Positions 8,484 through 64,000 of a DNA stretch of 64,000 bases are shown one piece after another (positions within the stretch are counted from its first letter, which is position 1; the number at the start of each line of letters is the position of its first letter). The stretch is taken from assembly GCA_964016885.1 (NCBI GenBank), contig OZ024743.1, forward strand, positions 320,168,001 to 320,232,000, in the 5' to 3' direction. The notes under the pieces were generated by a model that was not told the origin of the DNA, did no database searches, and saw only the letters and a program-made list of their open reading frames with translations. The position numbers and the translations under genes were made by a program. This stretch comes from Eledone cirrhosa. Taxonomy: Eukaryota.

Positions 8484-8514
8484 ATGAAGTTTTCGGTTAT
8501 TGCGGCTCTTGCTG
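8484..8514 (+). CDS. Coding exon 1 of secreted vWA/EGF-repeat protein (signal peptide N-part, MKFSVIAALA-G)
   Basis: aagATG context, then ATG AAG TTT TCG GTT ATT GCG GCT CTT GCT G|gtattt; phase 1 donor. Joins exon 2 to form a typical signal peptide. Confidence 0.75.
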
Positions 8515-8788
8515 GTATTTATCACTGTTTACTATTTCTTGGATAATAACATTTCTGTTTTGTCTTATTAATAGATACCATACTTATAAGTAAGCATGAA
8601 GAACCAAGAGAAAACACCATCTCTAACACTACGTTACGATCTTCGCATCTCAAAAAATGTATTAGATTTATAGCAACAATAATTAAATCGCCCAAAATAT
8701 ATTAATCAATGCAGTATTATTTCCATCAAGAAAGTAATATGGTTACTTCAGATGATATATTTCATCTAATACATTTTTATCATTGCAG

Positions 8789-8833
8789 GTGTTCTAACTT
8801 TATGCCTGAGCGTAGCAGGAAGACCTGATCCAT
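8789..8833 (+). CDS. Coding exon 2 (45 nt, GVLTLCLSVAGRPDP; end of signal peptide)
   Basis: ttttatcattgcag|GT...CCAT|gtaagt; strong splice sites, phase 1-1, open frame. Confidence 0.8.
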
Positions 8834-9354
8834 GTAAGTAAAATTTAATAAACCTTTAAATTTTCTTTCTTCCTCTATCTCTCCCCTCTCTCTCTCTCTC
8901 TCTCTCTCTCTCTCTCTCTCTCTCTCTCTCTCTCTCTCTCTCTCTCTCTCTCTCTCTGTATATATATATATAACACATTATACATATAACACACACATAT
9001 ATATATAACATATATATATATGACATATATATATAACATATATATATATGACATATATATATAACATATATATATATGACATATATATATATACAACACA
9101 TTATACATATAATACAACACATTAACCGCAGTCATGCATGTTTATGTATGTATGAATAAATTTATTGAATAACCAACAAATTAAATAACTCTTTGCTTAT
9201 ATATATATATATGCAAACTATATTTATATAGATACATACACACAATCATACATGTATATGTATGATTGTGTATGTATAATTGTGTGTCTATATAAATATA
9301 GTTTGCATTTTATTAAAAGAGGAGAATGGTTCCACCTGCATCAAAGATAATTAT

Positions 9355-58954: not shown

Positions 58955-60862
58955 ATAGGAACGAGTAGGACCCCGACGGCTGAGCTCAAGCCGTTTCGAC
59001 GGCTAATTCTGGACTAAATTAACATTTTTATCCCGGTATATGAATAGCCTAGCTTCTCAGGGGGTAATTTCCATATGTGGTAAAAGTGATTGTCACAAGG
59101 ATTGGTCAAAACTTTGTTGTTGAGACACATAATTCTATCAGTGCAATTTGTGGAAGGAATGGGTAGCTGAACCTGCCAGTAGAAGAAAGAGGGAGAGCGA
59201 GTGGAGGAAACCCAGTCGTGCGTTGATGGTGCCAACTACAGCAGAGCAGGAGGTCAAGCAAGTATACTAGGGATAGGGGGGGAGTCGAAACAATAAGTAA
59301 ATCAATATGGAGTAAATATATAGAAGAATACCAAGAATGTTAAAAATATAAAAAAACAATTTCTGGTTACTATTCCCTAACGACAGTTCAATAAGTCTCT
59401 CACTGGTACTGCTAAACTATAGAAAAGTTTACTAGGTAGGACGGATTTGTAATGAGACCATCTTAAGAGTTAGTAGTAATCAACCGAGTATATCTTATGG
59501 TGACAGGTCAACAAGTGGGGGGCCAAAATACTATATAAACTACCACGAAATAATAATTCAGATCCCGAAACTAATACGAAATAAATGTTTCTACCCTAGG
59601 TACAAGGCCAGCAACCACCCAGTGCAAAAAATAAACTAATACGAAATAATAATTCAGAATCCCGAAAACAAATAATAATACTATGTCTAAGGGTGGCGCT
59701 ACGATACAAAAATTCTATTGCAAACTACATAAATGCTCGTAGGAGGTATATGAAAAATTTGATACGGAAAATTATTTCAGAATCCCCCCCCCCCCTTCAA
59801 AAAAAAAAGTAAATACTGATATACGAGAAATTAAAGCAGAGATACCACTAAGAAATGTAGAAAGCACGGAAATGGGGCAGCCATCGGATAAGAAAGCAAG
59901 TATCTGGGGTCTATCACATCTGCTATAAAAAGCGGAGTCGGCCAATTCTATCATAGAATAGGGCATGGGGTGGGGGTATCTCTGCTTTAATTTGTCGTAT
60001 ATCAGTATTTTTTTTTTTTAAGTGGGGGGGGGGGGGATTCTGAATTATTTTCCGTATCAAATTTTTCATATACCTCGTACGAGCATTTATGTAGTTTGCA
60101 ATAGAATTTTTGTATCGTAGCGGCACCCTTAGAGATAGTATTAGTATTCATTTTCGGGATTCTGACTTATTATTTCGTATTAGTTTAGTTTTTGCACTGG
60201 GTGGTTGCTGGCCTTGTGCCAGTGGTAGAAACATTTATTTCGTATTAGTTTCGGGACTCTGAATTATTATTTCGTGGTAGTTTCTTTAGTATGTTGGCCC
60301 CCCATTTGTTGACCTGTCACCGTAAGATATACTCGGTTGATTACTACTAACTCTTAAGATGGTCTCATTACAATTCTGTCCCACCTAGTAAACTTTTCTA
60401 TAGTTTAGCAGTACCAGTGAGAGACTTCATGACTGTCGTTAGGGAATAGTAACCAGAAATTGTTTTTTTATATTTTTAACATTCTTGGTATTCTTCTATA
60501 TATTTACTCCATATTGATTTACTTATTGTTTCGACTCCCCCCCTATCCCTAGTATACTTGCTTGACCTCCTGCTCTGCTGTAGTTGGCACTATCAACGCA
60601 CGACTGGGTTTCCTCCACTCCGTCTCCCTCTTTCTTCTACTTGTAGGTTCAGCTACCCATCCCACCACAAATTGCCATGATAGAATTATGTGTCTCAACA
60701 ACAAACTTTTGACCAATCCTTGTGACAATTACTTTTACCATATATGGAATTACCCCCTGAGAAGCTCGGCTATTCATGTAACAGGATAAACATTTTCATT
60801 TAGAACAGAATTAGCCGTCGAAACGGCTTGAGCTCAGCCATCGGGGTCCTACTCGTTCCTAT
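58955..60862. repeat. Long inverted repeat, copy 3
   Basis: Same arm and spacer structure as 30628-32549. Confidence 0.92.
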
Positions 60863-63800
60863 TACCCACTCTACTACCCTAAGTATTGAGTACTTGGTGC
60901 GTTATGGTCCTCCTGGCTCCTTACCACATTTCCTTCGTTATATATATATATATATTTATATATACACACACACACATATATATATATATATATATATATA
61001 TATATAGATGAATAGAGAGAGAGAGAGTGACAGATATTAGAGAGTCTAACATGGCAAAAACACATGGAGATATGCATATATCCTTCACATAAACTTGTAT
61101 CTGTTGCTACTAATGTTGTTACTACTATTATTAAAAACATTAGTACTCACAGATACGTTTTGTGAAGGTTCTATGTATATTATTAAAAACAAGTGTTTCT
61201 GGAAATACTAGTAATATCAACATTCACTCTAATACTGATAATGGTTTCTTATATTAGATAGAAATAGCATCGATTATATGGGTACAATACGCGATGACAT
61301 ACAATGTCAGCGATGATATTACTTCGAATAAATAACAATAGAAATAGCAAAAAAATAAACAGAACGTTAATTACAACATTAATAACCACTGGAAATTATC
61401 AAGTAAATTTCGCGAATCACGTAGGCATTAATAAGTACACATATCACAAACCCTGAATTAGGCTGACACTCAAAATGTATGTCTTCTAAGTTTTGCCAGC
61501 AGCCAACATCCACATAATTTGAAGACGTTCATAAGTTTCTGACAGCGAGAAATATCTCAGGCTTCAAATCTTTCGATTCTTTACATCTCGTAAATTCTTT
61601 GCTGCAGAGTAGTTGTTGGCAGTATAAAGACTCAGTACGAACAGATTGAAAATATCAACTCTCTTCTCCTCGCGATAAAAAAACAAACGGTAAAACTTCA
61701 AAATTAACTGGCACGTAGGCTGTTTCTGTCAAGCGCATGTTAATAGCTGTTCTATATAAACATATCAGCAATGCACCGATACTTCTTATTACGAAGTCGG
61801 TGAATGGCGAACACTTTTTTGCTGATCTGAAGTCGGATTCAAGCCTAACCCCAAAGTGACCACATATCTTTACTTTGGACGCTTTTACAGTCTCTGCTGC
61901 AATTTATCGTGCCTGCTTATACCGCAAGTGAAAGGAGGGCTTATTGCCAAGCCAAGCTTTGTAAACCTCCTTCTTTGCTCGGATGGCATGTTGAACCTCT
62001 TCATTGAACCAAGAAGTCTTCCTGCCAATCGGCGCAAGACCAAGCCTCTTTTGCAAGCAGGATTTAACAGCTGAAGCAGAAACTTCTGTGCTGAACAATC
62101 TCTGAATTTGGATGCAATTGGATCTGCATAACTGGCCTTCATTTCCTTTTCCACCAATGCTTCCCGTTCTATCCAGGAGGTCGCTCTGGAACTGCCAGTT
62201 TTCTGGGCTTCTTTGGCTTTAGGTACTCAAGTTGCAGATAACAAGATGGTGATCACTTGACAGCTCAGCCCCTCTCTTAACTCGAGTCCAATCTAGCTGA
62301 TGAACAGTGTGGTTTTCTCCGCGGACGCAGCATAGCCGTCCAAATATTCACACATCGTGGGAGTATTGCCAAGATATATATTCTTGTGTTATCGAACTTC
62401 GGAAGACATATGATCACATTCCACGGGACCTGCTATGGAAGTTTGTGCAGGAGTATGGGATTGATGGTCAGCTTCTTGCTGTCTTGATGTCTCTATATGA
62501 ATTCCCGAAACCATTCAATGTCGGAATCGGAATCTCCTGTTAATTATTTACATAAACAGGATTGTATGCGCAGCCGGTTTGGAAGTGGTATCGTGTCTGG
62601 CATTTGTAAAATGGGTCGCATGGAATTTTCAGACGACATGGTGCTACATAACTCGACAGATCTTCGACTTCCGCATCTCACCTTCCTTCTGAAGGATACT
62701 TAAAGAAAAGGATAAGTTGGTGTCCGGAGAGAAAGGTGTTTGCCCTCAGTCCTTTTAACCTCGTCCACCATATTACCTCTCTCGCCATAGCCACCAGACA
62801 GAGGAAAACCGTCTCTCCTTCGTTCTTAAATGAAGGCGGCGGGGTGATCCTCACGATTGTCTCGGCTGACAACTGGATGCGTCCCACACATGACAGCAGC
62901 TGTTCGACATAATAGGTTTGATGCCGAGTGCTGCATGGCTGGAATTAAAATCAGTGCTGCAAAAACTGAGACACTCGTCCACTCGAGGAAGCCTGCAAAC
63001 TGCACGCTACATATGAGTGGAGTTTCACTGAAGCAGGTAGAGAAGTTCAAGTATCTCGGGGCCGTGTTCACGAGTGATGGAAGGCAGGACGCTGAATTAA
63101 ATGCAAGAATTGCAAAAGCTGGAGTAGTAATCCGCCACCTGCAGCATTCAGAAGGGAGGTAGGCGTAAAAGCAAAACTCGCTATCTTCAATTAGTCTTTC
63201 GTGCCCACCCTTACCTATGGTCATGTATCTTGTTTAATGACCGAATAATACGATCGCGAATACAAGTGGCAGAAATAGAATTCCTCTGATGGGTATTTAG
63301 AGTACAGGAATCTGAGGCTCATTATATGTAGAACCGCTACTTCTCCGAATTGAGAGATAACAGCTCCAATACTATGGGCATGTGGTTAGAATGTCTCGGG
63401 TAAGAATCGCTGGACAGATTTTACGGAAAAAACCAACCGGCAGAAACCCAGGGGTAGATCCCGATTAAGATGGTTAGATAACATCCATGAGCTTGGCTGG
63501 TCACGCTTGGGGATCCAGCCGGATCAGTTGGAGACGGTAGCTTCTGACAGGACTAGCTAGAAGGAGTGTTTGAGGACTCTGACCCTACGACCCTCTCGGG
63601 AAAAAGTGGGTGATGAAGAGTAAGAGTAAAAGAAGTAAATAGATAAATAAGTAAATAGATAAATAAGTAAATAAATGTCCAGTTATTGTTATCTACCCTT
63701 CAGTCTTGTATTATCACATAAGTAAGTTCTCTCTGTTAAAGTTCGGTTTAATGTTTAACAAGCAGTATTGCGATTCTATTCACTGACATGTGATGATGAA

Positions 63801-64000
63801 TATGGGATTCCTCTTCTTTAAATATCAACAAAAGTGGTCATTTGTTTCTACACCTATGTTACTGGAGAGGAAACTATGATAACTAATTCCACAGTGATAT
63901 TAATAGCCATAGATATGACGTTCTACATATATATACATGCACACACGCGCTCGCGCGTCGCACACACACACATATATATATATTATTTTTATTTTGAAAC

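Follow-up and report, generated by a model that had tools for sequence, protein, structure and literature searches.

Tandem repetition of a 14.2-kb linker/vWA/EGF block within an octopod gene for a predicted secreted protein

We show here that, in a stretch of 64,000 nucleotides of Eledone cirrhosa DNA (the window), twelve exons join into one open frame, that a block carrying linker, vWA and EGF exons recurs in a tandem array with a period of ~14.0-14.3 kb, and that the vWA exon is spliced to the EGF exon. Our preferred reading, to which we give a probability of roughly one half, takes this locus to hold the first part of an octopod gene whose predicted product is secreted and cationic, with vWA and EGF domains and likely a vWD-TIL-PAN end. 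Within it the 14.2-kb block stands in four or more tandem copies, which on this reading are likely an allele of variable copy number. A longer multi-module protein is predicted only, and one RNA-like sequencing run counts against it. It is likely that the extra 14-kb copies either vary between animals or are skipped.

The open frame and its repeated block

The preliminary description of this DNA had phase 1-1 exons splicing into a single frame, and this held. Three leader exons and three linker/vWA/EGF sets give 727 codons without a stop, with matching text. All 11 introns between them are GT..AG and phase 1 (11/11 for each), the splice sites are identical across all modules, and none of the 12 exons shows a stop, a frameshift or the loss of a splice site. 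The gene features are as follows.

8439..8446, +, TATA-like box by sequence, putative in function, 38-45 nt upstream of the ATG
8484..8514, +, exon 1 coding part, start of the predicted signal peptide; aligns with the P0079 leader and resembles that of P0126
8789..8833, +, exon 2, remainder of the predicted signal peptide (open frame, comparison with relatives)
11460..11477, +, exon 3, 18-nt micro-exon (from sequence: AG/GTAAGT, frame kept)
13260..15056, +, LINE reverse-transcriptase fragment in intron 3, outside the array (Pfam RVT_1 and zf-RVT)
21832..21849, +, Pro-rich linker micro-exon, module 1 (joined frame)
24797..25363, +, vWA exon, module 1 (Pfam, joined frame; spliced to EGF in run X4)
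29677..29787, +, EGF exon, module 1 (Pfam, joined frame, run X4 junction)
36025..36042, +, linker micro-exon, module 2 (joined frame)
38980..39546, +, vWA exon, module 2 (1 change from module 1)
43922..44032, +, EGF exon, module 2 (joined frame)
50295..50312, +, linker micro-exon, module 3 (joined frame)
53071..53637, +, vWA exon, module 3 (2 changes from module 1)
57948..58058, +, EGF exon, module 3 (joined frame)
24117..24493, +, decayed vWA piece, interrupted by stops and frameshifts and repeated at 38300-38676 and 52391-52767 (sequence, comparison with relatives)
28779..28892, +, dead EGF exon with an in-frame TGA at 28814-28816 and AT as donor, copies near 43006-43119 and 57059-57172

The decayed vWA piece and the dead EGF exon of each unit are absent from the preliminary description. 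Its sum for the ~14.2-kb copy stands, frame included (18+567+111 = 696 nt, or 232 aa), and the addition of these residues within one protein is so far a prediction. On neither strand of the window was a second copy of exons 1-3 found. The earlier view that the unit is not a gene duplicate holds; an intragenic duplication of symmetric phase-1 exons, rather than of the whole gene, is supported by the sequence. The window ends before the stop codon and the C-terminal coding part are reached, and tblastn with two full-length relatives as queries found no vWD or PAN exons in the window.

Pfam recognizes VWA (E=1e-51) and EGF (E=9e-8) in the module, which has 27 Lys in 232 aa and a pI of 9.3. MIDAS-type vWA domains carry the motif DxSxS...T...D, and the corresponding letters in the window's vWA, aligned with PTMP1, are D51, S53, S55, T122 and D155, together with a closing Cys pair. 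Two PDB matches reach E<=1e-25, PTMP1 (4cn8) and collagen VI alpha 3 (9han). A Lys-rich product with a MIDAS-type vWA, as proposed earlier, is supported, and its secretion is predicted. The modules differ at only two coding positions, both non-synonymous, and thus give no sign of selection yet.

The array itself and the inverted repeats between its modules are laid out as follows.

16969..17509, no strand, rearranged left edge of the array (orphan piece, microhomology joint, tandem repeat)
17446..31663, no strand, repeat unit 1 (14.2 kb)
31664..45968, no strand, repeat unit 2
45969..59987, no strand, repeat unit 3
59988..64000, no strand, repeat unit 4, truncated by the window end and intronic as far as it goes
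17446..18320, no strand, orphan right arm of an inverted repeat
30628..32549, no strand, inverted repeat, modules 1/2 (arms 30628-31522 and 31651-32549, ~93% alike, spacer ~130 bp)
44934..46847, no strand, inverted repeat, modules 2/3
58955..60862, no strand, inverted repeat, modules 3/4

The ~14.2-kb units described earlier are thus confirmed, with their extent reduced: only three bear exons within the window, and the fourth is intronic there, its micro-exon being expected near 64,322. That the copies are very young also proved sound. They differ by 0.42-0.77% substitutions, with 51-59 per ~12.1 kb among units 1-3 (simple repeats masked) and 24-32 private sites per copy, and the differences have the appearance of real ones. 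Transitions make up 41 of 83 (one third being expected for random errors, p=0.002), CpG transitions number 8/650 vs 18/3,821 (p=0.043), and (ACT)n arrays run to 29, 35 and 26 copies in different units. Variation nearly vanishes in the middle of the unit, which bears the exons (11 variable sites in 5,107 columns). At the left edge, a 327-bp orphan piece corresponding to 28384-28710, with 1-2 differences from each copy, meets the unit start at a 6-nt microhomology, followed by a 156-bp tandem repeat. Taken together, the units look like real, recent copies. Two alleles of a single-copy locus could not account for four distinct unit sequences.

The arms are ~880 nt long and 93-94% alike for every right/left pairing, and no left arm was found in the window upstream of 17446. 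Unit 1 retains seven arm letters where the later units have a common change, which fits stepwise growth of the array. Gene conversion between the first right and left arms was set aside for these seven letters, since its direction would have to alternate within 9 bp. The arms bear a likeness to Penelope-type ends with a hammerhead ribozyme. That identity is unsupported: Rfam gave no match across the whole window at gathering scores, and one inverted repeat, scanned by E-value, gave microsatellite-driven matches only. Two ORFs lie at 6352-7478, and tblastn with them found no match to the arms.

An octopod family with recurrent module arrays

The nearest relatives found are octopod cationic proteins with a signal peptide, vWA/EGF and vWD-TIL-PAN, annotated 'zonadhesin-like', and not matrilins. 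The best among the proteins compared, P0079, aligns over 259 aa, leader and linker among them, at 55.6% identity (E=6e-94) and has vWD and TILa hits; PAN was found in its orthologue P0040. In the window gene the signal peptide, the Pro linker, vWA and EGF are all homologous to those of this family. A vWD-TIL-PAN end, in which the family's vWD often has GDPH, is predicted for it. Matrilins carry a C-terminal oligomerising coiled coil. The earlier likening to them is right as to the presence of vWA and EGF domains, but in the best relatives of the window gene no coiled coil is seen, and they end in vWD-TIL-PAN instead.

Members of the family bear the automatic names 'zonadhesin-like' or 'von Willebrand factor-like', and include XP_036357551 and XP_036357280 (O. 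sinensis), CAI9719612, CAI9720129 and CAI9720130 (O. vulgaris), and GAB1600458 and GAB1606482 (Argonauta hians). They resemble the window gene in a homologous leader, Pro-rich linker, MIDAS vWA and EGF, in a vWA 48-57% identical to that of the window (for those compared), in a basic pI (8.7-10.8) and in near-identical tandem vWA or vWA-EGF modules. In contrast, the window vWA forms its own branch in the tree, in an open fork (84/75) with the family clades. This tree covers 36 of 49 vWA rows, the other 13 being divergent or duplicate, and does not include P0226. The protein searches gave no entry that approaches 100% identity to the vWA exon. A profile-free search of representatives returned mostly generic repeat proteins and gained P0226, P0249 and P0298.

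Five other near-identical vWA module arrays occur in gene models of the family in three species, so the singular expansion "caught in the act" of the preliminary description gives way to a recurrent process. Four arrays could be placed in the tree, and each forms its own clade. Module counts for O. sinensis vs O. vulgaris in the same clades are 1 vs 2, 1 vs 6 and 2 vs 5, although arrays in gene models may be collapsed or over-expanded. The older multi-vWA proteins P0034, P0073 and P0078 differ from the window array in that their modules are divergent (18-38%). The literature search found no paper on these octopod genes, nor one on family-wide recurrence of module arrays.

A single-module RNA and its interpretation

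No sequencing run was recorded as RNA; run X4 is called RNA-like solely from a GT..AG exon joint and the absence of most intron bins, and it may come from an animal of another genotype than the one assembled. It contains a 2,571-nt contig in which vWA is spliced to EGF, passing over the dead EGF exon, and which continues for 1,892 further letters, a tail that fits in size the coding tails of the family (1,626-1,758 nt). The contig has no break for a next module, and in this one RNA-like sample there is no EGF-to-linker junction, the junction whose absence from RNA the preliminary description had named as refuting the joining of successive units. Among five simulated transcript models, only that with one module and a micro-exon sometimes skipped gives the shape of the contig; the multi-module models yield pieces of at most 697 nt that end at the EGF exon, whereas the observed contig extends further.

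At 24953 the RNA module carries a change found in none of the three window copies and in none of 10 reads from RAD runs X5 and X6, and there is one additional difference in the EGF piece; its divergence from the window copies about equals that among the copies. These letters are as an allele would have them. RNA editing was rejected for 24953, since DNA G to RNA A is the wrong direction for A-to-I. At 25287, where copy 1 has a private letter, G is missing from 2 of 4 X6 reads, which suggests, on few reads, that the private letter exists in another sample too; with 4-6 reads at two exon sites, X5 and X6 are too shallow for genotypes.

Copy-number polymorphism is the likeliest reading of an array accompanied by a single-module RNA. 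A first doubling would have been followed by stepwise amplification of the block through unequal crossing-over; since every exon is phase 1-1, each unit would lengthen the protein encoded by the assembled haplotype by 232 aa, and the RNA sample would derive from an animal or allele with one module. This reading fails if run X4 comes from the assembled animal.

An alternative that we regard as unlikely is that the array is real and mostly spliced out, exon 3 joining the last module. Pairing of arms across the modules would loop these out, and circles of 696 nt without a stop would arise on the side. The geometry could allow this, as each inner module lies between an upstream right arm and a complementary downstream left arm, and the first right arm is without a local partner. 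The arms are 93-94% alike in every pairing, and the RNA contig matches 0/3 window copies, as expected for a terminal copy outside the window. In RefSeq models of O. sinensis LOC118762594, moreover, the whole 201-aa linker-vWA module is missing from 3/12 isoforms and the 5-aa Pro linker from 2/12, although these skips are possibly mis-mapped reads between 94%-identical modules. However, every module has the same splice sites, neighbouring arms 130 bp apart would favour local hairpins, the RNA is not known to come from an array carrier, and no back-splice joint occurs among the joints listed for run X4. A broader version, which we hold to be distinctly unlikely, makes the octopod proteins an undescribed cationic gland-adhesive family whose vWA valency is tuned twice, by independent 'accordion' module duplications in the genome and, at the window locus, by an inverted-arm splicing switch in which 0.9-kb arms, copied together with each module, pair across a module and loop it out. 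The array could then lengthen without a longer mRNA, and 696-nt circles free of stops would be released.

The contig might also stem from a near-identical single-module sister gene elsewhere in a cluster, the array gene's transcript not having been sampled. The family is apparently clustered, since five members in O. vulgaris lie on contigs of one and the same length, as do four in O. sinensis, and a sister gene would suit an RNA module that differs from the copies about as much as they do inter se. Yet the window holds no second locus, and with both genes expressed in the sampled tissue the EGF-to-linker loop would still be expected (simulated model E). We consider this very unlikely.

Improbable to a still higher degree is that the assembly is over-expanded or has joined haplotypes, leaving fewer units in the animal than assembled. 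A single-module RNA and the near-invariant middle of the unit would agree with this, as would the unit-specific X1 DNA contigs, which, among the matches listed, carry the majority letter at the variable sites covered, a pattern also expected from errors in single copies. Bubble removal on a true array produces majority letters as well, though, and four distinct unit sequences plus the orphan piece, nested shared changes, the transition and CpG biases and whole-unit microsatellite differences all argue for genuine copies. X1 contig depth is 35-47 on unit introns, lacks a single-copy control and is thus not a copy-number measure. There is, finally, only a slight chance that the array allele is real and silent or degraded, for example by a break further downstream, with the RNA showing the short allele alone: the single-module RNA has letters absent from the window copies and the locus already contains decayed vWA and EGF exons, but all 12 window exons are intact and a TATA-like box is present.

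Possible function and known systems

Under the copy-number reading, the MIDAS vWA would serve as a metal-dependent binding head and the EGF with its Pro linker as a spacer, and a gel or cement protein secreted by a gland and joined via its vWD region may gain valency with every additional module. In-frame tandem duplication of a domain block is a known mechanism, and it is the setting that is useful here. In LPA kringle IV-2, multi-kb intron-containing in-frame units stand head-to-tail in one secreted-protein gene, every copy is translated and the number varies between people. The window array likewise has near-identical multi-kb units with symmetric in-frame exons, but here translation of every copy and variation in number are predicted only. 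In vertebrate zonadhesin (mouse, zebrafish), phase-1-flanked exon blocks have similarly been duplicated recently and in tandem within the gene, with doubt between collapse and population variants (PMC1325057). Zonadhesin differs in having MAM and mucin domains before the vWD repeats, and its repeats are vWD rather than vWA-EGF (PMC1325057); in the window gene there is no MAM between leader and first vWA, the leader passing through a short linker directly to vWA.

With six or more near-identical arrays that are separate from one another, this small octopod family offers a naturally replicated setting in which to ask whether selection or mere drift sets the number of domains in a secreted material protein, and how copies stay alike. 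If modules are skipped by way of the flanking inverted repeats, duplication would be buffered at splicing, a cheap route to large domain arrays. The family is a candidate component of octopus secretions that are still uncharacterised, for example egg cement or mucus. O. maya 'ZAN' transcripts increase in the oviducal gland at fertilization (PMC8976471); as the available text has it, they were named by Swiss-Prot matches only and so give no tie to the family. The available main text of a skin-mucus proteome names only generic vWA/vWD proteins (PMC11431876), and the available text of the argonaut eggcase paper shows no link to the family (10.1101/2021.07.10.451900). The octopus egg-thread protein octovafibrin is also a secreted material protein of tandem EGF domains, but its lectin-(EGF)29-lectin architecture, with an N-terminal C-type lectin and no vWA (PMC10336842), places it outside the family. 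A vWA fold with MIDAS is shared with the window gene by matrilins, the vWA arrays of collagen VI and mussel PTMP1, a two-vWA MIDAS protein of the byssus (PMC5435178).

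Structure of the array and identity of the gene

The window consists of AT-rich animal DNA, rich in microsatellites and retroelement pieces, and its self-comparison reveals units repeated head to tail every 14.0-14.3 kb, from about position 17,446 to where the window stops; three are complete, and a fourth is present over 4 kb. Twelve exons join into one 727-codon frame with no stops, every junction being GT..AG and in phase 1: three leader exons, each present once, and per unit exons for a Pro-rich linker (18 nt), the vWA (567 nt) and the EGF (111 nt), together 696 nt. This bears out the preliminary description of phase-1 module exons in a single open frame, and Pfam confirms both domains. 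The exons of unit 4 and the stop codon fall past the window end. The module has 232 residues, 27 of them Lys, a pI of 9.3, all MIDAS letters of the vWA and eight Cys, which fit a predicted pairing of one vWA and three EGF bonds. Older local duplication is indicated by two remnants present in every unit, a decayed vWA piece and a dead EGF exon. The left edge of the array has been rearranged in a complex manner on a small scale: a 327-bp orphan unit piece meets the unit start at a 6-nt microhomology, and a 156-bp tandem repeat follows. Such a pattern is typical of template switching.

The closest matches of the vWA exon are octopus proteins. O. sinensis XP_036357551 (P0079, automatically named 'zonadhesin-like') aligns across leader, linker, vWA and EGF (55.6% over 259 aa) and continues with three further EGFs, a vWD and a TILa domain; given this homology, the window most likely carries the front of an octopod gene of the P0079 type. 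The architecture had been compared with that of matrilin-like matrix proteins, but this nearest relative runs on into vWD and TILa, and in P0040, its O. vulgaris counterpart, a PAN domain was scored. By testable features, the gene qualifies neither as a matrilin nor as a true zonadhesin. Searching with P0079 recovered additional family members. Family proteins are basic (pI 8.4-10.8, n=9 measured), and GDPH, a self-cleavage site in mucin-type proteins, stands at the vWD start in 5 of the 14 checked.

Divergence of the copies

With simple repeats masked, differences among units 1-3 number 51-59 in about 12,100 columns (0.42-0.49%); the 3.7 kb of unit 4 diverge from these three by 0.60-0.77%. 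Private sites number 24-32 per copy, transitions (41/83) exceed the random-error expectation (p=0.002), CpG transitions are enriched 2.6-fold (8/650 vs 18/3,821; p=0.043), and a trinucleotide array numbers 29, 35 and 26 copies across units. Judged by the low divergence, the private sites and the transition and CpG bias, the array is very probably real and young, and it is intragenic, as had been proposed. Since there are four distinct units, at least two must share one haplotype.

An inverted repeat at 30628-32549, with copies elsewhere, has 0.9-kb arms and a 130-bp spacer; a hammerhead-like motif was seen in it by eye, for which Rfam gave no match. Its arms differ at 29 fixed sites in 800 columns, and it is thus older than the array. 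At seven sites in the arms, unit 1 has the opposite-arm letter and later units a common change, so unit 1 likely branched off first and the remaining units were amplified afterwards. Some two-against-two splits among units conflict, which suggests exchange between them. Variation between copies is uneven (p=2e-6): of 5,107 columns in the exon-bearing middle (21446-27446), 11 vary, and the level is several times higher in the flanks, which may reflect homogenisation or faster mutation in repeats.

A single-module transcript and its explanations

Four of the seven sequencing runs listed were compared with 22400-29900. X4, a second sample of the same study, has no recorded library type and is taken as RNA from its behaviour. 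One of its contigs (2,571 nt at a depth of 68.9) aligns with the vWA exon, beginning at the exon's second letter, omits the predicted GT..AG intron of 4,313 nt, resumes in the EGF exon and continues for 1,892 letters absent from the compared stretch. This proves expression, the vWA-EGF splice and skipping of the dead EGF exon. The 1,892-nt tail fits family coding tails of 1,626-1,758 nt plus a short extra. The preliminary description had every copy lengthening one protein, with EGF-to-next-unit junctions expected in RNA; X4, the only RNA tested, shows a single module and no break at the EGF end such as a following module would give, and the longer protein is a prediction.

Graphs (k=31) were simulated for five transcript models, without graph cleaning and with the tail length taken from the data. 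All three multi-module models, heterozygote included, yield pieces that are 679-697 nt long and stop at the EGF exon, and one letter before the vWA with run-through arises solely from one module whose linker is sometimes skipped; exon 3 and the linker share their final letter, A. Graph cleaning could mask a rare loop but should not mask a major one. In addition, the X4 module has an A at 24953 (Ser90 to Asn), found in none of the three window copies and in 0 of 10 reads of two other samples, and one further difference in the EGF piece. Taken together, the run-through contig, the simulation and this A mean that the X4 sample makes mainly single-module mRNA, from a module that is none of the window's three.

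We give a probability of about 0.5 to the reading that alleles differ, the assembled haplotype coding for at least three to four modules and another allele for one. Because the module exons are symmetric in phase 1, doubling of the block would leave the frame intact; the number of units would then change through unequal crossing-over. In a gland secretion, the predicted protein would act as a multivalent MIDAS arm attached to a vWD-type polymer.

Alternatively, modules may be skipped in splicing. The arms on either side of each module are complementary (about 880 nt, 93-94% alike) and the first right arm lacks a local partner, so they could pair across modules. Among the 12 RefSeq isoform models of the O. 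sinensis relative LOC118762594, 3 lack an entire module and 2 a Pro linker. We consider such skipping rather unlikely. That the RNA contig derives from a sister gene is less likely still, and assembly over-expansion is improbable in view of the distinct units, their private sites and mutational bias, and the differing trinucleotide arrays. A silent array allele has the least to commend it.

Recurrence in octopods and other elements

Near-identical vWA modules (93-100% within a protein) occur in 5 of the 21 proteins examined.

Near-identical vWA modules in octopod relatives
P0040: 2 modules
P0126: 2 of 3 modules
P0127: 6 modules
P0128: 7 modules
P0129: 5 modules

Three vWA-EGF3 modules of P0226 are 92-98% alike. 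In a tree built from 36 of the 49 vWA rows, the window, P0040, P0128, P0127 and P0129 each have their modules in a separate starred clade. Counts within clades are 1 vs 2, 1 vs 6 and 2 vs 5 (O. sinensis vs O. vulgaris), some of which differences could reflect collapse in one assembly, the relatives' arrays being gene models. Separate arrays number six, the window included and P0126 and P0129 taken as one. Modules of older multi-vWA octopod proteins are merely 18-38% alike, so near-identity is special to the vWA/EGF-vWD-TIL-PAN family, of which module expansion is, on these comparisons, a habit. The consecutive O. vulgaris models P0127 and P0129 (CAI9720129 and CAI9720130) resemble the two halves of LOC118762594 and have a separate vWA array each.

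The locus draws its interest from this family-wide recurrence and from the disagreement of genome and RNA. The literature searched, with subscription papers outside its scope, gave no description of the family or of its arrays. The mussel byssus vWA protein PTMP1 is one of two structural relatives listed. In zonadhesin of zebrafish and mouse, exon blocks with phase-1 flanks are described as having been duplicated recently, in tandem and in frame (PMC1325057), and the present array resembles that case in duplication type and in the doubt between collapse and population variant. Octovafibrin, an octopus egg-thread protein of tandem EGFs, shares EGF with the window gene, whereas vWA belongs to the latter only (PMC10336842; reached via PMC12723725). 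O. maya transcripts named ZAN occur in the oviducal gland and white body (PMC8976471, PMC6522055) but could not be linked to the family.

Other elements of the window
2566-3793 and 19795-21145: two decayed copies of a single RT-bearing retroelement (64-74% alike), of which every unit contains the second
4920-5118: minisatellite, 37-bp period, 5.4 copies
6352-7478, minus strand: two overlapping open frames without Pfam match, which we take to resemble a Penelope-type RT with a GIY-YIG end
13260-15056: LINE reverse-transcriptase fragment in intron 3, open over about 600 codons, with a 3' tail; its part 14718-14932 matches an inverted insert, 20207-20421, at 79%
25998-26204: short MITE-like inverted repeat, noted by eye in the intron between vWA and EGF
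28173-28674 and 28948-29057: repeats of very high copy number, their summed depth reaching 1.4 million in the DNA run X1; the latter, also abundant in RNA-like X4, is SINE-like with short tandem-repeated 3' ends
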